This document shows positions 1-19,875 of a DNA stretch of 64,000 bases, piece by piece (position 1 is the stretch's first letter; every line of letters begins with the position of its first letter). A model generated the notes under the pieces. That model saw only the letters and a program-made list of their open reading frames with translations. It did not search any database and had not been told where the DNA came from. This DNA comes from an uncultured Bacilli bacterium (GTDB lineage Bacteria > Bacillota_I > Bacilli_A > RFN20 > CAG-826). Where the stretch lies: NCBI GenBank assembly GCA_944349595.1, contig CALVNF010000002.1:4386-68385 (forward strand), in the 5' to 3' direction. Made by a program: the position numbers and the translations under genes.

Positions 1-2847
1 CTAATCGATACTTTTAGCAAAATTAGAAGCAGAGGGCTCACCAAAGAAATATATGTGCCTAGAAAAGAACAACAAGACTGTATTAATGCATTAAAGAGAT
101 ATTTTGATAAACATCCTACTGGCGGTAGGTTCCTTTTAAACTGCAAGATGAGGTTTGGTAAGTCTTATACCACATATAAATATTGTGAAGAAGCTAATCT
201 TAGGAAAATTCTTATTCTTACTTTTATTCCTGCTGTTGAGTCTTCTTGGAAAGATGATTTAACACACATTAAAACTGAATATTTGTATTTAACGGACGAA
301 AATTTAAGACAGCCTCTTTTTCAATTATATTCTATAGATAAGCCTTATGTACTCTTTTTGTCGTTGCAGAACATGTTGGGCAAAGATAGAAATAACAATG
401 ATGTAAAAGATAAAATTAAGAAGTTAAAAGACGAACATTTTGATTTAGTAATATTAGATGAATATCACTTCGGTGCTTGGAATCAAAGAACTCAAGAAAA
501 ATTAGAGGATTTTGATCCTGAATATCAAAAAGAGTTAAGTAAGACAAAAGATGTAATTGATAAATTCGGTATTAAGACTGATAAAATTATTTGTTTATCT
601 GGTACTCCGTTTAAAGCTATTGCTAGGGGCGAATTTATTGAGGAGAATACTTTTACTTATTCGTATTTTGATGAGCAGAAGAACAAATATCCAAACGACG
701 ATATTACTCATCCTAACCCTCAATATGCTCAATTTCCAGATATGAAGATATTTGGTTATAACATGTCGGCTTTATTTGGCAATTTAACAGCCCAGGTATT
801 TTCTGATGATAAGATATTAGGAAAAAAATACTTTTCTTTGAATCGCTTCTTTGAGGTCAGAAAAGATAGCAGCGACACCGAACCTTATACATTTGTTTAT
901 GAAAAAGAAATCAAAAAATGGCTTGATATCATAAAAGGTCGTTCTGATTTTGGTCGTAATTTTCCATATTCTAAACAAGAAATGCTAGATAACAACAAGC
1001 ATACTTTATGGCTTATGCCTACAGTAAATTGTTGCATTGCAATGAGTTTGTTACTTGAAAAAGACGAATATTTTAACAAATATCAAATTATTAATCTCTC
1101 TTCTCCTGAAGTAGGTTCAGGTGTTGATGCTTATGATTTTTTGCTAGAAAACATTAATAAGGCTAATAACATAAATAAACTAGGCAGCATTGCATTAACA
1201 GTTAATAAATTAACAACAGGTGTAACCGTTAAAGATTGGTTTAGCGTCTTTGTACTAAAAGATTTAGCGTCACCTGAACAATATTTCCAATCTATATTTA
1301 GAATTCAAACTCCACTTGTAATAGATAGAGAAATAAAAAAGAAGGTTGGATATGTTTATGATTTTAACATTGATAGAGCCTCAGCCTTACTTCTAAGGTA
1401 TGCAGAAGAAACAGCTGATCAATCAGTTACTAAACTCCAAATTGCTAAGCTCATAGTTAAATATTTACCTATCTTTATGAATGGTGATATGGATAAGCCT
1501 ATCGAATATGAAGTGTTTTATCAATTAGCTCAATTTGGTGACCAAAGCAATGTACCTTTATCTAGAAAGATTACAAATCTTGAGGCTACTACGCATGCTT
1601 TAAATGAAGAAACTATGGCAGCAATGCTTAACGATCCTGAAGTCAGCGACATAATAAAAAGAGTTTTTGCTCACTCTAAATTAACTAAGAGTAAAGATAG
1701 AACAAAGCCTGCAAAGCCTGAACAAGATGGTTTTGAAACTGAAGTGGCGAAAAAAGGTCGAGATCTTGGTTATAGACTAGGGATGGAAGACTCAAAGAAT
1801 TATCTTGATTTAGATGATTCAGATGTTCAAAAAGCTTTCGAAGATAACATTGAAAAATATATCGCTGAAAACATGCCAAAAAAATACAGAGATAAAGAAA
1901 AAGTCTGGTATTCAAACGGATTTAAAAAAGGCTATGAAAGCGGAGTTAATGTTCCTATTAAGAAACTAAATTGTGGCTATGATGATGGCAAGAAATTTGT
2001 TGACGAGGTTAAGAAAAAATTCGGTGAAAATATTCATTATACAAGAGAGACTAGACCTCAAATAATGAACTTTACTAATCCATATTTAAATAACATCAAT
2101 CATATACCACTACAATATAGAGGAATGCTATATAAAAGATGGTACATTGAATCATTTGTGAGAGCAGTGAAAGATTGTTTGAGACCAGTTATAAAAGACG
2201 AAGATGGTGGAACAACAATAGATGATGCTGATAATGTGCTAAGACATATTTTAGCGAGGTTAGTTGAATTCTTATATATCAGTGTTTATAGAGAGACAAC
2301 ATTTAATGAAATATTTCAAAACGCTGACCCTAATGTATTCCTTGAGGCTGTTGGCATCCAAAAGAAGGAGTTTGAAACTTTAAACAAATATCGTGTCTTT
2401 GAAGAAAATACTCTTAATAACTATATTCATGAATTCTTTGTTAATGAATCTATTGGTAAAGACTTAACATCAAATGGGAAAGAGTCAGATCAATACCGAA
2501 ATAGTTTTGGCTGGTTTGGCTTTAATAAAATTGAGCAAGAAGTCAAAGATTATGTTAACGAAACAAATGCTAAAGCTGTTCAAGATGAAATTGCTTCTTA
2601 TAGTAATATGGTTAGCGCTGATGCCGATGCTGATTTAGATATTGAAGAAACACCACAAAGCGAAACTGCTAACGATGAGGATAGTTTAGAAGAGAGGATA
2701 ATATCTTTACTGAAAATTAACACTAAAGGTATGAGTTCTAAAAAGATAGCTAAAGCTTTGAGCGTTTCTAAAAAAGAAGTTAACAAAGTTCTTTATGAAA
2801 GCAAGAATAAATTCACTCAAGACTTTTTGTCATGGAAATTAAAGTGA
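1..2847 (+). CDS. Superfamily-2 DEAD/DEAH-type helicase family protein, 5' end outside the window, C-terminal winged-helix-like tail
   Basis: Frame 1 is open from position 1, and the listed GTG at 55 is only an internal alternative start. Motifs: Walker-A-like RFGKSYT, motif II VILDEYHFG (DExH), motif III LSGTP, motif VI-like QSIFRIQT. The C-terminus (KKIAKALSVSKKEVNKVL) looks like a wHTH. The ORF ends in TGA. Confidence 0.6.
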   Translation, partial: LIDTFSKIRSRGLTKEIYVPRKEQQDCINALKRYFDKHPTGGRFLLNCKMRFGKSYTTYKYCEEANLRKILILTFIPAVESSWKDDLTHIKTEYLYLTDENLRQPLFQLYSIDKPYVLFLSLQNMLGKDRNNNDVKDKIKKLKDEHFDLVILDEYHFGAWNQRTQEKLEDFDPEYQKELSKTKDVIDKFGIKTDKIICLSGTPFKAIARGEFIEENTFTYSYFDEQKNKYPNDDITHPNPQYAQFPDMKIFGYNMSALFGNLTAQVFSDDKILGKKYFSLNRFFEVRKDSSDTEPYTFVYEKEIKKWLDIIKGRSDFGRNFPYSKQEMLDNNKHTLWLMPTVNCCIAMSLLLEKDEYFNKYQIINLSSPEVGSGVDAYDFLLENINKANNINKLGSIALTVNKLTTGVTVKDWFSVFVLKDLASPEQYFQSIFRIQTPLVIDREIKKKVGYVYDFNIDRASALLLRYAEETADQSVTKLQIAKLIVKYLPIFMNGDMDKPIEYEVFYQLAQFGDQSNVPLSRKITNLEATTHALNEETMAAMLNDPEVSDIIKRVFAHSKLTKSKDRTKPAKPEQDGFETEVAKKGRDLGYRLGMEDSKNYLDLDDSDVQKAFEDNIEKYIAENMPKKYRDKEKVWYSNGFKKGYESGVNVPIKKLNCGYDDGKKFVDEVKKKFGENIHYTRETRPQIMNFTNPYLNNINHIPLQYRGMLYKRWYIESFVRAVKDCLRPVIKDEDGGTTIDDADNVLRHILARLVEFLYISVYRETTFNEIFQNADPNVFLEAVGIQKKEFETLNKYRVFEENTLNNYIHEFFVNESIGKDLTSNGKESDQYRNSFGWFGFNKIEQEVKDYVNETNAKAVQDEIASYSNMVSADADADLDIEETPQSETANDEDSLEERIISLLKINTKGMSSKKIAKALSVSKKEVNKVLYESKNKFTQDFLSWKLK

Positions 2848-2860
2848 GGGCAACTAACCT

Positions 2861-3154
2861 ATGGAAACTAAATCACAAGGAGTAATCTATATACTTACCA
2901 ACCCATCATTCCCTGATTACGTTAAGATTGGATAAGCTGACGATGTTCAAAAGCGTCTGAAGGAACTAAACAGGAGCGAGTGTATTCCTTTTGCTTTTAG
3001 GCTTTATGCTTATTATGAAGTTCCTAGAAGACTCACTGATATGAAGCTCCATCAAATGATAGATAAGTTAAATCCTAATCTTAGATCTATTGAGGAATTT
3101 GATGGTAAGACTAGAAAAAGTGAATATTCTAACGCTTCGGAGCTACCAGTTTAA
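2861..3154 (+). pseudogene. T5orf172 (GIY-YIG-like / MUG113-type) domain gene interrupted by an in-frame TAA
   Basis: ATG at 2861 gives METKSQGVIYILTNPSFPDYVKIG, then TAA at 2933-2935. The same frame continues as ADDVQKRLKELNRSECIPFAFRLYAYYEVPRRL...ELPV to a stop at 3152-3154. Together this is the canonical T5orf172 core (VIYILTN...KIGxxxxxxxRLxxLN). Confidence 0.6.
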
Positions 3155-3585
3155 AGCTAGAGAGCCATACCCTATTTAACTAATAATTTTGACCTTGAGA
3201 GCCATCTTTAAATTATATCCCCTAAAATATTTTTACTTGAGTTTTCATTGAGTAATTTCAACCATAATTCAGAAAAATATTATCTATAATATTTTTTAAG
3301 ACACACAATTATTCAATTTTTAAAACTTTAAATTCATATAAAAAAACATTATTTTTAGTATTATTTAATTAAGATTGATGAGTTTGGAACAAAAACGAAA
3401 ATTAATGATACATTTTTACCAACAATAGATTCTTTTAAAATTCAAAATGTAAGTAAAGACTTAAAACTAACAGAAAGAAAAAATAAATTAATAAGTGATA
3501 TCATCAGTTAAGCTAAAATTGTAATTTACAGATATTTAAAACATAATATATTATGTTTTTAATTAATATTTTTATAATAACGTGT

Positions 3586-3613
3586 TAATATTATTAAAAT
3601 TTTAATAATATTA
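3586..3613. promoter_or_regulatory. 28-bp perfect A/T palindrome (TAATATTATTAAAATTTTAATAATATTA) just upstream of the RBS of the 3631 gene; candidate operator
   Basis: Positions 3586-3613 are exactly self-complementary, centred between 3599 and 3600. An RBS (GGAG) lies at 3618-3621 and the ATG at 3631. Confidence 0.4.
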
Positions 3614-3630
3614 TATTGGAGTTTGTTATT

Positions 3631-5886
3631 ATGAAAAAAAGTAATGTATATTATGTATATAATCAATGTAAAGTTTGTAAAAATAGAAAAGAAAGAATTC
3701 AAATAATAAATGATTATCTTAAAGCTGGAAAAATTACAAAAAAAGAAGCGGAAGATATAAAAAGAAAATTAATTAAAAAACCAACTTCATATCTTGTTTA
3801 TAGCATTTTAAAAAAGTATTCATCTGTAAATAATAGATTAACAAGAGAAGATATTATTAAAAAAATTGAAGAGGATTATGGTGTTAAAATTGAATCAAAA
3901 GATACAATAAGTGCAGCCATAGAAGAAATTGGTTATATAAATTATGTTGATTTAAAAGAAAATACTTTTGATAAGTTTAATGAATCTACAATTGTAAAAG
4001 CGGGTAAAACTGGATTCTTTTTATTAGATAGTGAAAAATTATCTCTTGGAGAGATCGCTTTTATTGTAAATGCAATTTTATCATCGGTATCGCTAACTAA
4101 AAAAGAAAGTGAAGAATTCATCAAAAAAATATTAAAATTAGGAGAAAGCGATATTACTTTTCATGATTTATTAAATGTAAAAGAAAATTATAGTTATAAT
4201 TCATCACTAATTAAAATAGAAACTAATTCAACACTAGATAAATTATCATTATTAACTAGAGCTAAAGAAAATAAAAAAGATATAACTTTTGAAACAGGTG
4301 TAGGATTAATTAATAATGAAGTAGATTTAAAAAATGCATTTAATAACAAGAAAACAACAATTACTATGACTCCTTATTATATATTTTCTAAAAATGGTAA
4401 GGAAATTGTTATTGGCTCTGTTGCGAATACTAATTTTAATTATTTAAAACCAGAGAGTAATTTGAATCATAAATATCTAATATATTTATGTTATGTTCAA
4501 AACATGGAAAACATTCAAATATTAGATACTTCAACACCATTTAAAATTTATAACAAAATAAATTTTGATATGTTTATTTCTAAATTTATAAATGGAGAAA
4601 CATTTATAAAAGAAGGAACATTTCATCCAGCACAACTTAATATTATAAGGTATATATGTCTTGTAAAATCTATTTATGGACTTAAAATTTTAATTGATTT
4701 TTTTAACTTACCATTTAAAACTCAAAAACAAAAAAAGAAAATTAATATTAGTGAAGACATAAAAAATAGTTCTGTGATATCTTTAAGTAAAAGTGAACAA
4801 AATAAGCTTATAAAAGAAAGTAGTAAATATCGATATACGATCCGATTTAATACTGATTACTTTAAGATGGAATCATTTATTTCTTATATTAAAATGTATC
4901 AACTTGATTATTTAATTTTTAAAAAAGATATTTCAGGACCATTGAGAATTATTTATTCAAAAGAAGAATATCGCAAAGAACTAATTAATAAATATAATAT
5001 AGAAAATGAAAGAAATTATAAATTAACTTATATAGATAATTTAACTAAACTTCTTGCAATTAAATATAAAATTGGAGAAAAAAGTGATGAATTAAAACAT
5101 TATTTAATTAGAAATAAACTAATTGAAGAACCTCTTATTAACGGCAAATTAAAAATAGCAGAAAATTATTATTATGATAATTTTAAAAATAAATCAAATA
5201 AAGATATTTTTGAAAACTTAGATAATGATCAAATAATATATTTATATAGACATTTAAATTTTAAAGAATTAACTTATCTTGAATTAAATTTAGAATTTTT
5301 AAATGGTTTAAATATTCTTCAAAATTTAGATTTGAATTTAGATATAGATATTAACAATACATTTATAATTGGAGAAGAAAATAATAAATTAATTACATGT
5401 AATTTAGATAATATATGGTATCAAGGAATTTCTGGAGTTGGTAAAAGTACTTTTATTTCATCTCTAATAACAGATTTAATTAATTTAGATAATAATTATA
5501 AGTTTGTTATATATAATGATAAAGGTCTTTATGAATATGATGTAGATAAAGAATATTTATTAAAACCATTATTAAAAAATGCTGAAGAATTAATTAATTT
5601 TTTAAGTTCTTATCAAATAAATGATAATGAAAAGTTAGTTTTAATATTAGATGGAGCTGATTTTGATTTAACTTATCAATTAGGAATTAATAAATTAATA
5701 AATAAAATATTAACTGAAAAGAAGATTATATTAATATTAACAAGTCAAGGACAAGAATTTTTAACTAAAGAAAATTCTAATTTATTTAATATCAAAATCA
5801 ATAAAACAGAAAACAAAGAAAACGGCATAATTATAAATAAAGATAGTTATACTTATTCTATTATAAGATTTGAAGTATTTAGATAA
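3631..5886 (+). CDS. Large hypothetical protein: wHTH-like N-terminus, LRR-like repeats, C-terminal NB-ARC/STAND-like P-loop NTPase
   Basis: RBS TTGGAG precedes the ATG at 3631. The N-terminal segment LTREDIIKKIEEDYGVKIESKDTISAAIEEIGYI fits an HTH_11/DeoR-type wHTH. Residues around 520-580 (LNFKELTYLELNLEFLNGLNILQNLDLNLDIDINN) are LxxLxLxxN-like. Walker A is GISGVGKST and Walker B is LVLILDGADFD. Composition is extreme (K/N/I/Y rich, GC well below the housekeeping genes). Confidence 0.55.
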   Translation: MKKSNVYYVYNQCKVCKNRKERIQIINDYLKAGKITKKEAEDIKRKLIKKPTSYLVYSILKKYSSVNNRLTREDIIKKIEEDYGVKIESKDTISAAIEEIGYINYVDLKENTFDKFNESTIVKAGKTGFFLLDSEKLSLGEIAFIVNAILSSVSLTKKESEEFIKKILKLGESDITFHDLLNVKENYSYNSSLIKIETNSTLDKLSLLTRAKENKKDITFETGVGLINNEVDLKNAFNNKKTTITMTPYYIFSKNGKEIVIGSVANTNFNYLKPESNLNHKYLIYLCYVQNMENIQILDTSTPFKIYNKINFDMFISKFINGETFIKEGTFHPAQLNIIRYICLVKSIYGLKILIDFFNLPFKTQKQKKKINISEDIKNSSVISLSKSEQNKLIKESSKYRYTIRFNTDYFKMESFISYIKMYQLDYLIFKKDISGPLRIIYSKEEYRKELINKYNIENERNYKLTYIDNLTKLLAIKYKIGEKSDELKHYLIRNKLIEEPLINGKLKIAENYYYDNFKNKSNKDIFENLDNDQIIYLYRHLNFKELTYLELNLEFLNGLNILQNLDLNLDIDINNTFIIGEENNKLITCNLDNIWYQGISGVGKSTFISSLITDLINLDNNYKFVIYNDKGLYEYDVDKEYLLKPLLKNAEELINFLSSYQINDNEKLVLILDGADFDLTYQLGINKLINKILTEKKIILILTSQGQEFLTKENSNLFNIKINKTENKENGIIINKDSYTYSIIRFEVFR

Positions 5887-5891
5887 TACTT

Positions 5892-6557
5892 TTATAAATT
5901 ATTCATCATATTATTTTCTTTTCGATATTTATTGTATTCTTTAAATTTATCAGGGAATTTGTACACTATACAAATTACCATTATAAATTTCATATACATA
6001 CCAAAATTTTCAATTTTTTTATCATCAATTTCTCCACAAGTTAAAGCATTTAAGTTATTATACATATCAATAACTTTTACTAGACTTGCCGTTGGATTTA
6101 TAATTAGTTTAGATATATATTCATCATATGATTCACTTTTATTATGAGTTAATAGTAAAAGTGATGCTTTAATATTAACTTGAAAATAACTTAATAAATC
6201 AACTTCATTAAATAAATTTTCTAAATCATTTATTGTCAATTTTGTGTCTTCAATTATATCATGAAGACAACATAATTCTTGCACACCTCTATATGGTATT
6301 TCTAATTCGTCTAATTTATCTAAATCTATCGAATTAGGATTATTATTAATTCCAATTAAATCTTGATATAATTCCATACATCTAAGTGGATGAAAATAAT
6401 AATATTCTTCGTTTAATCTAACTTGATCTTGATGAGCATAATAAGCAATCATTATTGACAAAAATACACTATATTGAGATAACTCTTTTGCTTGGTCAAT
6501 TGTAATGTTTTTATGCTTACTATAATAATTAATTACTTCTCCATATAATTTATTCAT
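5892..6557 (-). CDS. Stand-alone HD-domain (p)ppGpp-hydrolase-like protein (small alarmone hydrolase, Rel/SpoT/Mesh1 family)
   Basis: Rel/SpoT hydrolase motifs: R-x-N-x3-YYYFHP (HD1), LCCLHDIIEDT (the HDxxED signature), and VKVIDMYNNLNAL (cf. LADRLHNMRTL). The start is placed at MNKLYGEV behind a GGAGGT RBS. Confidence 0.7.
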   Translation of the reverse strand: MNKLYGEVINYYSKHKNITIDQAKELSQYSVFLSIMIAYYAHQDQVRLNEEYYYFHPLRCMELYQDLIGINNNPNSIDLDKLDELEIPYRGVQELCCLHDIIEDTKLTINDLENLFNEVDLLSYFQVNIKASLLLLTHNKSESYDEYISKLIINPTASLVKVIDMYNNLNALTCGEIDDKKIENFGMYMKFIMVICIVYKFPDKFKEYNKYRKENNMMNNL

Positions 6558-6648
6558 TTTTTTACCTCCAGTAATTACAAAATAAATATAAAACATAAAT
6601 TATTAGTTTTGGTAAAATCTCATTTGACTAATATGGTATTATATAAAT

Positions 6649-7035
6649 ATGAGTTTAGAAGAATATATTAAATTTCATAAAACTAACAAAGAAAAATCAT
6701 TAGATTTTGTAAGTTATTTATATTATTTAATGGATAAATATAAATTTGATTCGGTAACTTTATATAATAAAGCAAATATTAGTAAGCAATTATTTTCTAG
6801 TGTAATATCTAATAAATCAAAACCAAGTATTAATTTTATTATCAAAATTGTCTTTGCAATGCATGTCAATAATCATGAATGTAAATATTTATTAAAAAAA
6901 GCTAATTTTACATTAGCTTCTAATTCTAATTATTCATTAATTATTCGTTATTTTATTGAAAGTAGTAATTTTGATTTAAATAAACTAAATGATGCTTTAA
7001 TAAAATACGGATATCAGGATAAAATAATTTATTAA
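6649..7035 (+). CDS. XRE-family helix-turn-helix protein, divergent from the HD hydrolase gene
   Basis: The central segment TLYNKANISKQLFSSVISNKSKPSINFIIKIVFAMHV matches the Cro/C1 HTH pattern (ISxxxxSxxxxxxxxPSxxxxxKIxxAL). Confidence 0.5.
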   Translation: MSLEEYIKFHKTNKEKSLDFVSYLYYLMDKYKFDSVTLYNKANISKQLFSSVISNKSKPSINFIIKIVFAMHVNNHECKYLLKKANFTLASNSNYSLIIRYFIESSNFDLNKLNDALIKYGYQDKIIY

Positions 7036-14954: not shown

Positions 14955-17831
14955 ATGAGTGAAACTTATAATGATATTAAAAATGCTCTTAATAAAGCAT
15001 TTATAGATTATAACTTAGATTCTGTCGACTCATTATGTCCATCTTTTTTATATAATAATAAAGAAGAAAATAAAAAAATAATTTCAACTTTAAAAGAAGA
15101 ATTTAAAAAATGTGAAGAATTTTATATTTCCGTTGCATTTATTACATATTCTGGACTTCAAATTTTAAAAGAAACATTAAAAGAAATTAATGATAAAGGT
15201 ATTAAAGGAAAAATTTTAACAAGCGATTATTTATGTTTTACTGAACCAAAAGCTTTGAAATTTTTGCAAGATAATTTTAATAATATTGAAGTTAAAATGT
15301 ATAAATCATCTGATCTTGATGGTTTTCACACAAAAGGTTATTTTTTTAAACAAAAAGATGATATCTATAAAATTATTATCGGATCTAGTAACATTACTGC
15401 AAAAGCTTTAACAGTTAATCAAGAATGGAATACTGAATTAATTTCCACAAAAGATGGAAAATTAATAAAAGAATTATTTGATCAATTTAATTTATTATGG
15501 AATAAATCGACCGATTTAAAAGATTATATAAATACATATACTAAAATTTATGAAGAAGCCAATAAAGAAAAAGTTATATTAAATGTTGATAATATAATTA
15601 ATCAAAAAATAGAACCAAATTCAATGCAAATAGAGTTTAGTCAAAAATTTAAACAACTTATTGAAAATGATGGTAAAAGAGGTTTATTAATTTCTTCTAC
15701 TGGAACTGGAAAAACATACGCAAGTGCATTTGCTTTAAAAAATGTTAACGCTAAAAAAGTTCTTTTCTTAGCTCATAGAACAACATTATTGATTCAAGCT
15801 ATATCTGCTTATCAGCGAATTTTTCCTAATTCATCTTTTTCAATTCTAACTGGAGATAAAACTTATATTAAAAATTTAAATGATGTTTCATATTTTGATA
15901 ATAATGAATATGATTTTGTATTTTCAACTTGTGAGATGATGTCTAAAAAAATTGACGAATTTATTAACGCTAAAAAATTTGATTATATTATTATTGATGA
16001 AGTTCATAGAGCGGGTTCAAATACATATCAAAAAATATTGAATTATTTTAAACCTAAATTTATTCTTGGAATGACTGCAACACCTGAAAGAACCAATGAT
16101 GAAAGTTTGATTTTTAATTTATTTGATCATAATGTTATTTTTGAAATTAGATTAGAAGATGCCCTTGATTATGGTTTGTTATGTCCTTTTCATTACTATG
16201 GAATAACTGATTTAAAAGGAATTAATGATGAAACATATGACAAACAAGACTTTAATAAATTATTTAGTAATGAAAGAGTTGAATATATTATTAAACAAAG
16301 CAATTTTTATGGATATAGCGGTGATAGATTAAGAGGTTTAATTTTTGTCTCAAGAAAAGATGAGGGAAGAAGACTTGAAACTTTATTGAATCAAAAAAAT
16401 TATAAAACTAAATTTTTAGATGGCTCTTTTTCATCAAGCGAGAGAGAAAAATACTTTAGATTACTTGAAGAAACTAATAAAAATAATGAATATTTAGATT
16501 TTATTATTTCTGTTGATATTCTTAATGAAGGCGTTGATATTCCAGAAGTTAATCAAATAATAATGTTAAGACCAACTCAATCAAGCATTATTTTTATTCA
16601 ACAACTTGGTAGAGGTCTAAGAAAATGGAAGAATAAAGATTTTGTAACAATTATTGACTTTATTGGAAATTATGATTCAAATTATATGATAGCTAAAGCA
16701 TTTTCAGAATCTGGTAATAAAGAACAAGCTAGATTAGTTGTTACATCTTCGTTTATTCCTGGAATTTCTACAATTGAATTTGACGAAATTGCGCAAAAGA
16801 AAATATTTGAATCAATTAAGAAAACTAATTTTGATACTATGTCGAACTTTAAAATCGAATATATGCATTTAAAAAATAGAATAAATAGAATTCCAAATTT
16901 GACTGATTTTTATGAATTTACTTATTTTGATCCATATAGAATTATTGAAAAATTTAAATCTTATCAAGATTTTCTTTTAAAAATTGAAAAAGATTTAAAT
17001 TATTCACAAAAAGAACTTGAATATTATCGATTTATTTCAAAAATTATATCTTCTGGATTAAGATTAGATGAAGTTAATGCTCTTGAATATCTAATTAAAA
17101 ATAAGAATTTAACTAAATATTTAGATGAAAAATTAATTTCTTTAAATAAAAAATTAACAATTATTAATGAATTTAATTGTAGTTTTTATGGAAAAAACAA
17201 TGATTCTTTAAGTTTAATTAATAGTTCATTAAACATTAGTGAAGATTTTGATGAAATGTTAAAAAATTTTTCATTTTTAGATAATATTAATAACTTAATA
17301 TTAATGTCTAAATTAAGGAATAATAAATTTTATGGAAAAAAATATAAAAATTCTGATTTATGTTTAAATTCTTTATATTCAAGAGAAGATATTTCAATTA
17401 TTTTTAATTGTAAAGTGAATAGAGCTAGTACAATTTATGGTTATCAATATTTAAAAGAAGAAAATGTATTTCCTATTTTTATTAATTATATAAAAACTCC
17501 AGAAATTTCTGATGCCACTAGATATGAAGATATGTTTATAAATAGACAAAAGTTTCAATGGAATTCAAGACACGGTGAATATATTGAATCAAAAAACATG
17601 CAAACTTTAATTAATGCTAAAAATAATAATACAAAAATTTATTTATTTGTTAGAAAATCAATTGATGAAAATAGCGGAAGTAACAAACATTATTTTTTAG
17701 GTGAAATGAGTGTGATAGATTTTAAAGAAATTATGAGAAATAATTATAAATATGTTTTGTTTAATTTTGCTTTAAGCGATGAGGTAAGAAGTGATTTATA
17801 TGAATATTTTAAAAAGGATATAAATAATTAA
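14955..17831 (+). CDS. PLD-family (HKD) nuclease / SF2 DEAD-DEAH helicase fusion protein with a large uncharacterised C-terminal domain
   Basis: HKD motif GFHTKGYFFKQKDDIYKIIIGSSNIT (HxKx4Dx6GSxN). Helicase motif I STGTGKTY, motif II IIIDEVHRAG, motif III GMTATPER, motif VI QQLGRGLR. About 320 aa follow with no recognisable motif. Confidence 0.75.
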   Translation: MSETYNDIKNALNKAFIDYNLDSVDSLCPSFLYNNKEENKKIISTLKEEFKKCEEFYISVAFITYSGLQILKETLKEINDKGIKGKILTSDYLCFTEPKALKFLQDNFNNIEVKMYKSSDLDGFHTKGYFFKQKDDIYKIIIGSSNITAKALTVNQEWNTELISTKDGKLIKELFDQFNLLWNKSTDLKDYINTYTKIYEEANKEKVILNVDNIINQKIEPNSMQIEFSQKFKQLIENDGKRGLLISSTGTGKTYASAFALKNVNAKKVLFLAHRTTLLIQAISAYQRIFPNSSFSILTGDKTYIKNLNDVSYFDNNEYDFVFSTCEMMSKKIDEFINAKKFDYIIIDEVHRAGSNTYQKILNYFKPKFILGMTATPERTNDESLIFNLFDHNVIFEIRLEDALDYGLLCPFHYYGITDLKGINDETYDKQDFNKLFSNERVEYIIKQSNFYGYSGDRLRGLIFVSRKDEGRRLETLLNQKNYKTKFLDGSFSSSEREKYFRLLEETNKNNEYLDFIISVDILNEGVDIPEVNQIIMLRPTQSSIIFIQQLGRGLRKWKNKDFVTIIDFIGNYDSNYMIAKAFSESGNKEQARLVVTSSFIPGISTIEFDEIAQKKIFESIKKTNFDTMSNFKIEYMHLKNRINRIPNLTDFYEFTYFDPYRIIEKFKSYQDFLLKIEKDLNYSQKELEYYRFISKIISSGLRLDEVNALEYLIKNKNLTKYLDEKLISLNKKLTIINEFNCSFYGKNNDSLSLINSSLNISEDFDEMLKNFSFLDNINNLILMSKLRNNKFYGKKYKNSDLCLNSLYSREDISIIFNCKVNRASTIYGYQYLKEENVFPIFINYIKTPEISDATRYEDMFINRQKFQWNSRHGEYIESKNMQTLINAKNNNTKIYLFVRKSIDENSGSNKHYFLGEMSVIDFKEIMRNNYKYVLFNFALSDEVRSDLYEYFKKDINN

Positions 17832-18918: not shown

Positions 18919-19875
18919 ATGTGTACAGCAATAAAATTAAAATATAAAGATAATTATATTTTTGGTAGAAATTTAGATTTAGATTATCATTTTAATGAAA
19001 AATTAATACTATTAAATAAAAATTACAAATTCACTTTTAAATTTTTAAGTGAACAAAAATCTAATTATAATATGATGGGAATTGGAGCTTTAGTAAATAA
19101 TTATCCATTATTTTCTGAAGCAATGAATGAAAAAGGATTATGTATTGCAGGATTAAATTATCCACAAAACGCTTATTATTTTAATGAAATAAATAAAGAT
19201 AAAATTAATTTAGCACCTTATGAATTAATAATTTATTTATTAAATAATTGTTCAAATATTAACGAAGTAAAAGAAGTATGTAAAAATATTCAATTAATAA
19301 ATAAACCATTTTTAGATAATATGCCATTAAGTTATTTACATTTTTTAATTAGTGATAAAGATGGCTCGATTGTTTTAGAACCTGATAAAGATGGATTAAA
19401 AATATATGATAATATATTTGAAGTATTAACAAATAATCCTCCATTTACATATCATTTAGAAAATATTAAGTTATATTTAAATTTAACAAATAAATATTAT
19501 TCAAATAATTTAAATACAAATTATGATTTAAAACCATTTTGCATTGGAAGCAATGCTACTGGTTTACCAGGAGATTCTTCAAGTCCTTCAAGATTTATTA
19601 GAAGTGTTTATTTAAAAGAAAATTTATTAAAGAATATTTATGATAAAGACAATTTAATTAATGGGTTGTTCCATATATTTTCGAAAGTTAGCGTTATTAA
19701 AGGTGAAGCTTTAACAAGCGATAATAAAAGTGAAATTACAATTTATACATCAATTTTAGATCCAAAAAATATGACTTATTATATAAAAACATATGATAAA
19801 TTAGATTGTTTTGTTTGTAAATTTGATGATTATTTATCAAAATTTAGTGATATTTTAGCTTTAAATTTTAATTAA
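18919..19875 (+). CDS. Choloylglycine hydrolase / penicillin V acylase family (Ntn) amidase
   Basis: N-terminal MCTAIKL with the Cys2 nucleophile, and FGRNLD at the CBAH family positions. Confidence 0.7.
   Translation: MCTAIKLKYKDNYIFGRNLDLDYHFNEKLILLNKNYKFTFKFLSEQKSNYNMMGIGALVNNYPLFSEAMNEKGLCIAGLNYPQNAYYFNEINKDKINLAPYELIIYLLNNCSNINEVKEVCKNIQLINKPFLDNMPLSYLHFLISDKDGSIVLEPDKDGLKIYDNIFEVLTNNPPFTYHLENIKLYLNLTNKYYSNNLNTNYDLKPFCIGSNATGLPGDSSSPSRFIRSVYLKENLLKNIYDKDNLINGLFHIFSKVSVIKGEALTSDNKSEITIYTSILDPKNMTYYIKTYDKLDCFVCKFDDYLSKFSDILALNFN

Follow-up and report, generated by a model that had tools for sequence, protein, structure and literature searches.

The gene at positions 3631-5886 (+ strand) of a 64,000-nucleotide stretch of DNA from an uncultured Bacilli bacterium (assembly GCA_944349595.1, contig CALVNF010000002.1; the whole stretch is the window in what follows, and coordinates count from its first nucleotide) encodes a 751-residue protein that, judging from remote sequence homology, is very likely a highly divergent member of the regulators that combine a winged helix-turn-helix (wHTH) with WYL and WCX domains. 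Appended to this three-domain core are ~300 lineage-specific residues, a helical domain followed by a lid-less P-loop core with NACHT-like motifs. We regard it as moderately probable that the protein is an autoregulated wHTH-WYL-WCX sensor and regulator of the BrxR/CapW/DriD/PafBC type with a lineage-specific NTPase-like extension.

An earlier sequence-only reading of the window had singled out this gene as an orphan of 752 aa; the coordinates hold, and the length is 751 aa, with 752 codons only if the stop is counted. The gene is indeed a near-orphan: the family comprises 8 proteins out of 5.8 billion, six of them 86-100% identical and one 42% identical, i.e. one species-level clade plus one distant orthologue, and an exhaustive HMMER profile search of 1.84 billion representatives returned 19 hits. 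The sole distant orthologue, at 42% identity, is P0008 (from contigs L003/L004), while L005, L007, L009, L010, L011 and L012 are loci of other strains. The gene had also been called the most AT-rich of the window; at 19.4% GC it ranks 8 among 49 open reading frames (ORFs), and its N/K/I/Y content ranks 4, in DNA of ~23% G+C whose ORFs are intact under code 11. The coding sequence starts with ATG, and a GGAG ribosome-binding site (RBS; 3618-3621, +), read from the sequence, lies 9 nt ahead of it and is kept in L005, L007, L009, L010 and L012. All features within the coding sequence are given on the + strand.

Homology of the N-terminal half

The sequence-only reading had proposed an inverted NLR (nucleotide-binding leucine-rich repeat protein), with a winged helix, leucine-rich repeats (LRRs) and a C-terminal NB-ARC/STAND-type NTPase. 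The N-terminal winged helix is present (segment LTREDII...EIGYI, aa 70-103), and between it and the C-terminal half lie a WYL domain and a WCX-like domain, which that layout lacked. Residues 46-361 align to five canonical wHTH-WYL-WCX regulators in an hhalign profile-profile comparison with a probability of 99.3% (E 4e-20), and every HMMER hit beyond the protein's own clade is a 270-500-aa protein that matches only aa ~49-394 of the query; these relatives are positive for Pfam WYL (PF13280), WCX (PF25583) and HTH_11/HTH_12, and two of the hits, P0019 and P0024, extend into their WYL domains. A profile that includes the canonical relatives finds DriD (8tp8, 7u02, 7tzv) and PafBC (7p5x, 9fnd) in the PDB with E values of 0.005-0.05. 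Together, these matches argue that the protein is a divergent wHTH-WYL-WCX regulator, at only ~19-26% identity to canonical WYL regulators; the landmarks of the alignment are the wHTH, the linker 'LSxxE..L...vLSS.SLT', the WYL strands 'sPYY....ng.yyligs' and the start of WCX, 'F.G....v.dfFG'. Searched directly against Pfam, NCBIfam, PHROGs and PADLOC, the full-length protein yields nothing except sub-threshold P-loop matches, and a PDB sequence search with the whole protein gave nothing significant.

The predicted domain order begins with an N-terminal helical extension (aa 1-48; 3631-3774) of three modelled helices, common to P0011 and P0012, in which the ratio of nonsynonymous to synonymous substitution rates (dN/dS; pairwise Nei-Gojobori against the 86%-identical L005 orthologue, here and below) is 0.30. 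A CxxC zinc finger in this extension was considered and dismissed, since P0008 shares only one of the Cys residues. The predicted DNA-binding wHTH domain (aa 49-135; 3775-4035) is placed by hhalign, which aligns aa 46-135 to the wHTH of canonical regulators, and by the HTH_11/HTH_12 matches of the relatives; the model has helices at 52-63, 72-83 and 90-99 and a beta-wing at 119-133. Linker helices follow (aa 136-235; 4036-4335), with the family-typical segment 'LSLGE..F.VNAILSS.SLT' located by alignment and hhalign.

By remote homology only, a WYL (Sm-like) and putatively ligand-binding domain is present at aa 236-320 (4336-4590), with the strands 'ITMTPYYIF..NGKEIVIGS ... YVQNMENIQIL' and an insertion of ~17 aa; the region aligns to the PF13280-positive WYL domains of P0019-P0025, and the profile-profile alignment is continuous through aa 236-300. 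The WCX-like domain (aa 321-~455, with an insertion; 4591-4995) is reached by hhalign as far as aa 361, across 'FIKEG...LIDFFN', the counterpart of the first WCX block 'F.G....v.dwFG' in PF25583-positive relatives; the rest (aa 362-455, which includes the insertion) is tentatively assigned from the beta-alpha-beta pattern of the model alone. The full-length AlphaFold model was built from a 7-sequence alignment and has a pLDDT (predicted local distance difference test score) of 52, with the WYL region unusable; a separate model of the C-terminal half has a pLDDT of 61.

The closest characterised parallels are BrxR and CapW, repressors associated with BREX, CBASS and defence islands, which have the same order of wHTH, linker helices, WYL and WCX, the last being assigned here in part only tentatively. 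Relative to them, the window protein has ~300 extra C-terminal residues and the 48-aa N-terminal extension, and several of the arginines that contact single-stranded DNA (ssDNA) are unrecognisable. DriD and PafBC, WYL activators that are themselves activated by ssDNA, are the best solved-structure relatives by sequence profile and have the three-domain core in common; they activate DNA-damage regulons and have no NTPase domain, and the similarity is too marginal to deduce from it whether the window protein is an activator or a repressor.

The C-terminal helical domain and P-loop core

The regulator core is followed by an all-helical domain (aa 456-562; 4996-5316) with model helices at 457-480, 485-494, 500-518, 523-528, 532-541, 544-549 and 554-559 and pLDDT of up to 90, and then by a low-complexity linker rich in N, D, L and I (aa 563-591; 5317-5403) that is disordered in the model (pLDDT <50) and has a dN/dS of 0.63. 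The stretch that had been taken for LxxLxLxxN repeats corresponds to the last short helices of the helical domain plus this linker, as the AlphaFold model also indicates (short helices, then disorder); its quoted string was slightly misread (FKELTYLE, not LKELTYLE), the regular expression LxxLxLxx[NC] has 0 matches in the protein, Pfam gives no LRR family at E<=0.1, and no LRR structure is found among the fold matches. Nor is there a repeat sensor of another kind (LRR, TPR or WD40) in the protein, since no repeat family is found in Pfam and the residues that precede the P-loop are modelled as helices or disorder. With no LRR solenoid, nothing in the layout is "inverted".

The C-terminal ~160 aa are, according to the models, a minimal P-loop core of the ASCE/AAA+-like kind, with NACHT-like motifs, rather than the nucleotide-binding oligomerisation domain (NOD) of a STAND protein. 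The predicted NTPase core (aa 592-725; 5404-5805) is modelled as a beta-alpha-beta fold, and both quoted motifs are where they had been reported: Walker A, GISGVGKST, at G599-T607 (K605; 5425-5451), and Walker B, LVLILDGADFD, at L669-D679 (D674, D677; 5635-5667). These are followed by the 'LILTSQG' strand ('ILILTSQG' at aa 700-707; 5728-5751). The last modelled core strand is at ~aa 721-724, the tail to aa 751 is disordered in both models, and the chain thus ends ~45 aa past the 'LILTSQG' strand; no lid, helical domain 1 (HD1) or winged-helix domain (WHD) follows the P-loop core in the models. Compared with AAA+ proteins, the fold is core-like, yet there is no lid domain after the core and no invariant arginine in the C-terminal alignment.

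Of the earlier proposal of an NB-ARC/STAND P-loop, the NACHT-like motifs and the shortness of the module for a STAND NOD are borne out, and the STAND assignment is not. NPHP3_N, NACHT and NB-ARC are the closest sequence families, and all score below their Pfam cut-offs (20.4 against 24.8 bits, 18.9 against 26.7 and 14.5 against 23.5, respectively); the matches are confined to the five members that keep the P-loop, and the best E value to a STAND-type Pfam profile among family members is 3.7e-4. A fold search with the P-loop core gives RecA-, FtsK- and AAA+-type structures as best matches, with the first STAND match at rank 47; the Foldseek matches include RuvB, clamp loaders, EssC and ORC, none below E 1e-3. 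The C-terminal profile finds nothing significant among PDB sequences, and beyond the clade there are no homologues of the C-terminal half in the exhaustive HMMER search, IMG/VR or JGI metagenomes, the GTDB genomes that carry it being of the same species only.

Both Walker motifs are intact in 6/6 members of the window's clade. In P0008, by contrast, TSKNRSDRLT stands in place of Walker A and VFVIE--D in place of Walker B, with clear alignment anchors on both sides; the full length of the protein is retained despite this loss, and the sequence recurs in independent assemblies. The P-loop is therefore not assignable to STAND, because the Pfam scores are sub-threshold, the fold matches generic, HD1 and WHD missing, and Walker A lost in P0008. 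The likeness to STAND NTPases (Avs and bNACHT; MalT and AfsR) consists of the Walker A, the 'DGxD' Walker B and the 'TSx' strand; the window protein differs from them in having neither HD1/WHD nor sensor repeats, and in a P-loop that is dispensable in P0008. A DNA-binding domain placed N-terminal to an NTPase recalls the AfsR-type STAND regulators.

The strength of selection falls steeply along the protein. Purifying selection is very strong on the wHTH and WYL parts: the dN/dS is 0.02 in the wHTH, the most constrained part, 0.08 in WYL, 0.40 in the WCX-like domain, 0.36 in the helical domain and 0.40 in the P-loop domain; at 0.40 the C-terminal half as a whole is the least constrained part, ~20 times less so than the wHTH. 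Identity to P0008 likewise declines, being 78% for the wHTH but 25% for the P-loop domain, and P0010, P0012 and P0015 are related subfamily members without the C-terminal extension. This pattern places the essential function in the predicted DNA-binding and sensor domains, with the extension kept as an ORF under loose constraint. P-loop catalysis is probably not essential to the family, because constraint on the domain is weak and Walker A is missing from the sole distant orthologue.

Joining a WYL sensor to another functional module follows the same principle as the WYL fusions that have been surveyed, which include Cas3, SF1/PIF1 helicases, Mrr/HNH nucleases, the AbiGII NTase, BRCT and TerB, besides wHTH-WYL(-WCX) proteins and PafB-PafC fusions (PMC4012209, PMC6789036). 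The architecture classes of those surveys, supplementary tables aside, do not include wHTH-WYL-WCX followed by a small P-loop core (PMC4012209, PMC6789036).

Putative promoter palindromes and the border of a defence island

Ahead of the gene lie the two longest perfect palindromes of the window. P1 (3538-3559; arms AAAACATAATA and TATTATGTTTT) is a perfect 11+11 palindrome, the second longest, and may serve as an operator (half-sites AAACATAA-N4-TTATGTTT). Overlapping with P1 is the best -10-like hexamer, TATATT (3547-3552), which is preceded by a -35-like TTTACA at 3525-3530; we infer a promoter here only tentatively, because such promoter-like matches occur at chance density in AT-rich DNA. 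The P1 half-site pattern recurs at -84 to -92, with <=1 mismatch, in 7/7 strain-level loci compared for the promoter; these include L011, where the upstream sequence otherwise differs and contains palindromes of its own at similar positions. P2 (3586-3613; arms TAATATTATTAAAA and TTTTAATAATATTA) is the 28-bp palindrome that had been noticed beside the RBS, a perfect 14+14 that ends 4 nt before it; it is the longest in the window, and an arm of >=14 arises in 1/200 block shuffles. P2 may be a second operator or a hairpin of the 5' untranslated region (5'-UTR). At its position 7 the window has T/T, L009 and L010 have A/A, with symmetry kept, and L005 has A/T. Over the ~100 nt ahead of the ATG the window and L005/L007 differ at ~3 positions, as against a dS of 0.27 in the coding sequence. 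There are no tRNA or Rfam elements around the gene, the latter even at E<=1.

By analogy, the palindrome layout is that described for BrxR, a dimer that represses its own gene by binding 11-bp inverted repeats located between brxR and its promoter (PMC9122601). For CapW the bound site is a 30-mer palindrome, from which ssDNA releases the protein (PMC11662680), and in both BrxR and CapW repression acts via 20-30-bp inverted repeats between promoter and start codon (PMC9122601, PMC11662680). The window protein resembles them both in the inverted repeats between putative promoter and start codon and in the variable defence cargo that adjoins the gene (PMC9122601).

A P1-like site with 2 mismatches (AAACATAA-ATTA-TTAGTTTT) is found at 6591-6610, in the divergent intergenic region between an HD-domain hydrolase gene and a 128-aa ORF downstream; chance alone would yield ~0.8 (0.78) such sites per window, and other strains have a more degenerate version, which makes the site a weak candidate at best for a second operator.

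The strain comparison bears out the earlier impression of a non-housekeeping setting, and places the gene at the fixed border of a hypervariable defence island. The upstream cargo differs from locus to locus: a ResIII helicase (PADLOC type-IIG-like) and a T5orf172 pseudogene in the window, in a block of 31% G+C against 21% in the flank; a MazG-like gene and a split Schlafen-type (SLFN) helicase in L005; an integrase, an MqsA-like HTH gene and a complete type I restriction-modification (R-M) system in L009; HsdR in L010; a 280-aa gene in L011; and ASCH, an HsdR-like gene, T5orf172 and an IS21 insertion sequence (IS) in L012. The 3' neighbours are constant in all strains, namely the HD hydrolase, small ORFs, a Big_2-endonuclease I lipoprotein and an ABC transporter. 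A variable slot on the 5' side and constant genes on the 3' side make the gene the fixed right border of a defence hotspot. This position fits the known co-localisation of WYL regulators with defence islands (PMC9122601), 61% of BrxR homologues lying <=50 kb from defence systems (PMC9122601, PMC11662680).

Conservation of the neighbourhood is limited to the species, within which the downstream genes are syntenic; P0008, P0010, P0012 and P0015, the more distant relatives, lie in unrelated surroundings and have no neighbouring gene in common, and no conserved partner gene was found. The HD hydrolase was rejected as such a partner, being syntenic only within the species and absent beside P0008, and the gene downstream of P0012 encodes an EF-G-like GTPase that has no relation to the C-terminal half. 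On the P0008 contig (L003 4015-5343 and 16751-19119) there are two short FtsH-like proteins (AAA plus Peptidase_M41), one of 442 aa and the other of 422 aa as called in L003 and 434 aa in L004; one of their genes lies directly 3' of a canonical 334-aa WYL-domain gene.

Immediately 3' of the gene, with 5 bp between the stop codons, is the convergent alarmone-hydrolase-like gene that the sequence-only reading had described. It encodes the HD-domain hydrolase (5892-6557, -), which matches a (p)ppApp hydrolase (7smg, E 6e-11) and phrog_990 (E 2.5e-21) and resembles the HD domain of RelA/SpoT; its likely start is the ATG at 6557, with a GGAGG RBS, not 6596. The 128-aa ORF beyond it (6649-7035, +), kept 3' of the regulator in all strains, matches the C-terminal end of phrog_4031, a family of long phage proteins (E 2e-7, profile positions 503-622 of 626). 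Further downstream, ~9 kb away in the conserved flank, a defence-like gene (14955-17831, +), also present in L005, encodes a 958-aa protein with a phospholipase D (PLD)-type nuclease, a ResIII/DEAD helicase and DUF3427, and is followed by a NUDIX gene. A choloylglycine (bile-salt) hydrolase family gene at 18919-19875 (+; E 1e-81) suggests a gut-dwelling organism.

On the 5' side, the block at 1-3150 stands out by its 31-32% G+C against ~21% around it and looks like recently acquired, partly degraded defence cargo. The ResIII helicase-like ORF in it (55-2847; 930 aa) has a C-terminal wHTH (weak z-alpha/HTH_11 matches) and matches PADLOC 'REase_MTase_IIG' (E 1.7e-30, model positions 161-593). 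The T5orf172/MUG113 (GIY-YIG-like) pseudogene (2861-3154, +) has an in-frame TAA at 2933-2935 in place of a conserved Tyr codon, gives a Pfam E value of 1.3e-11 when the stop is read as Y, and runs at its 3' end into the terminal repeat of an IS remnant; L012 has an intact 175-aa T5orf172 gene after its HsdR-like helicase. Directly 5' of the promoter block lies an IS-derived element that resembles a miniature inverted-repeat transposable element (MITE), at 3123-~3400 in the window, 9396-9880 in L005 and 5600-7900 in L012. The L005 copy is bounded by terminal inverted repeats of ~36 nt (TGAATATTCTAGAGCTTCGGAGCCATCAGTTTAGAC), contains subterminal 'GGCTCT.AAG / GGGAGTCAT' repeats and encodes no ORF; only the left end and the interior of the element are left in the window. 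The IS21 (IstA/IstB) at the same place in L012 makes it probable that the element is an IS21-derived remnant, and strain synteny breaks to the left of it.

Proposed mechanism, alternatives and meaning

In the mechanism that we propose, a dimer would bind P1, over the -10 region, and perhaps P2, so repressing its own promoter; DNA binding would change when the WYL domain takes up a nucleic-acid ligand, which is ssDNA in those relatives that have been characterised; and the C-terminal helical and P-loop module might contribute self-association or partner binding, either of a nucleotide-dependent kind, in the window's clade, or of a merely structural one.

Several observations weigh against this proposal. 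DNA binding by the protein is predicted from homology, and any function of its C-terminal half is conjectural. The Pfam WYL model has no match to the protein even at E<=1, and AlphaFold pLDDT is <50 over aa 170-337, which leaves the Sm-like barrel without structural confirmation. Where the canonical fRlDrI strand has 'R.D', this subfamily has Y.Q/A.E, and among the WYL ligand contacts of CapW (S158, R180, R184 and R200; PMC11662680) only a Ser158-like T247, in the 'sP' position, and an Arg180-like K/R257, at the first position of the RWHVR-equivalent strand, are recognisable in this remote alignment, the other two arginines having no clear counterpart. With the strand degenerate and only these two contacts recognisable, the ligand may differ. 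On the DNA side, P2 is not conserved in L011 despite an almost identical wHTH, and the P0008 locus has no comparable palindrome. No further copy of P1 or P2 is found in the 64-kb window with up to 3 mismatches, and, as a difference from BrxR/CapW, no second operator was found before the neighbouring genes; no target besides the gene itself is thereby identified. Lastly, the gene lies 3' of the cargo and co-directional with it, whereas BrxR and CapW usually lie 5' of the genes they control.

What the C-terminal half does is the point on which two other explanations turn. The protein could be a WYL autoregulator of the ordinary kind, its C-terminal half being an appendage that is decaying or purely structural, a former NTPase that serves dimerisation or stability and has no part in signalling. 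The rise of dN/dS from the wHTH and WYL to values of 0.36-0.63 C-terminally, the falling identity to P0008 and its replaced Walker A, and the existence of P0010, P0012 and P0015 without the extension would all suit such an appendage; we nevertheless hold it to be unlikely, given that an ORF of ~300 aa is kept in both lineages at 42% overall identity with dN/dS <1, that the Walker motifs are intact throughout the clade, and that the helical domain is confidently modelled. Rather unlikely, too, is a single-polypeptide defence or signalling sensor, in which WYL would sense an infection or DNA-damage cue, the P-loop would drive nucleoside triphosphate-dependent oligomerisation as the output, much as in STAND proteins, and the wHTH would serve autoregulation or as a DNA anchor. 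Such a sensor would account for the location at a defence hotspot, the sporadic phyletic distribution and the missing partner gene, and for a P-loop whose nearest, if sub-threshold, families are NPHP3_N, NACHT and NB-ARC and whose motifs (GxxGxGKS, hhhhDGxD and hhhTSx) are NACHT-like. Its fast C-terminal evolution (dN/dS 0.4-0.6) would be that of an arms-race interface, although a dN/dS of 0.4 is equally compatible with relaxed constraint. Family scans reveal no recognisable effector domain, however; PADLOC offers only a P-loop-length match to mad8 (E 7e-4), no HD1/WHD arms or sensor repeats follow the NTPase, its structural neighbours are generic ASCE proteins, and P0008 has kept its full length while losing both Walker motifs.

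The inverted NLR is very improbable: a wHTH and a P-loop are present and there are weak NACHT and NB-ARC matches, yet the LRR part is already refuted by regular expression, Pfam and model, WYL and the WCX-like domain fill the space before the C-terminal half, and the STAND arms and above-threshold Pfam scores are wanting. A further alternative concerns the palindromes only, which could be RNA elements; hairpins in the 5'-UTR would then mask the start codon and govern translation or the stability of the transcript. RNA of 3553-3640 folds at -16.5 kcal/mol (z = -3.0), with the P2 hairpin inside an outer stem whose pairing spans the AUG, and the compensatory T/T to A/A change in P2 is expected of an RNA stem too. 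Against this, the stems consist of A and U only, 3/200 shuffles fold as well, no Rfam family matches, conserved outer half-sites around a variable 4-nt centre in P1 are the pattern of a dimeric operator and not of a stem, and the precedent of the family is DNA binding (PMC9122601). We consider an RNA role quite unlikely. The boldest reading, and in our view an improbable one, is a WYL nucleic-acid sensor coupled in cis to a minimal NACHT-like NTPase switch, in which ligand binding would make the protein assemble on DNA, or come off it, in a nucleotide-dependent way at the defence-island border (a "proto-NLR" transcription factor or a stand-alone defence sensor).

The autoregulated wHTH-WYL-WCX regulator with an NTPase-like extension remains the reading that we prefer. 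Its general importance is limited, the family being tiny and its distinctive domain the least conserved part, and if the tail is a decaying appendage the protein amounts to a divergent regulator of the ordinary kind. Evidence is growing that WYL regulators switch on bacterial immune systems and DNA-damage responses, and their signal processing is under active study; if the P-loop module is functional in such a regulator, it would be a new wiring of that switch. Were the WYL sensor indeed coupled to an NTPase switch, one protein would combine two principles of sensing and signalling that until now have been known only apart from each other. The gene marks the constant edge of a hotspot at which strains swap R-M and helicase/nuclease cargo, and so offers a way into the regulation of defence islands in a gut bacterium that is uncultured and very AT-rich.

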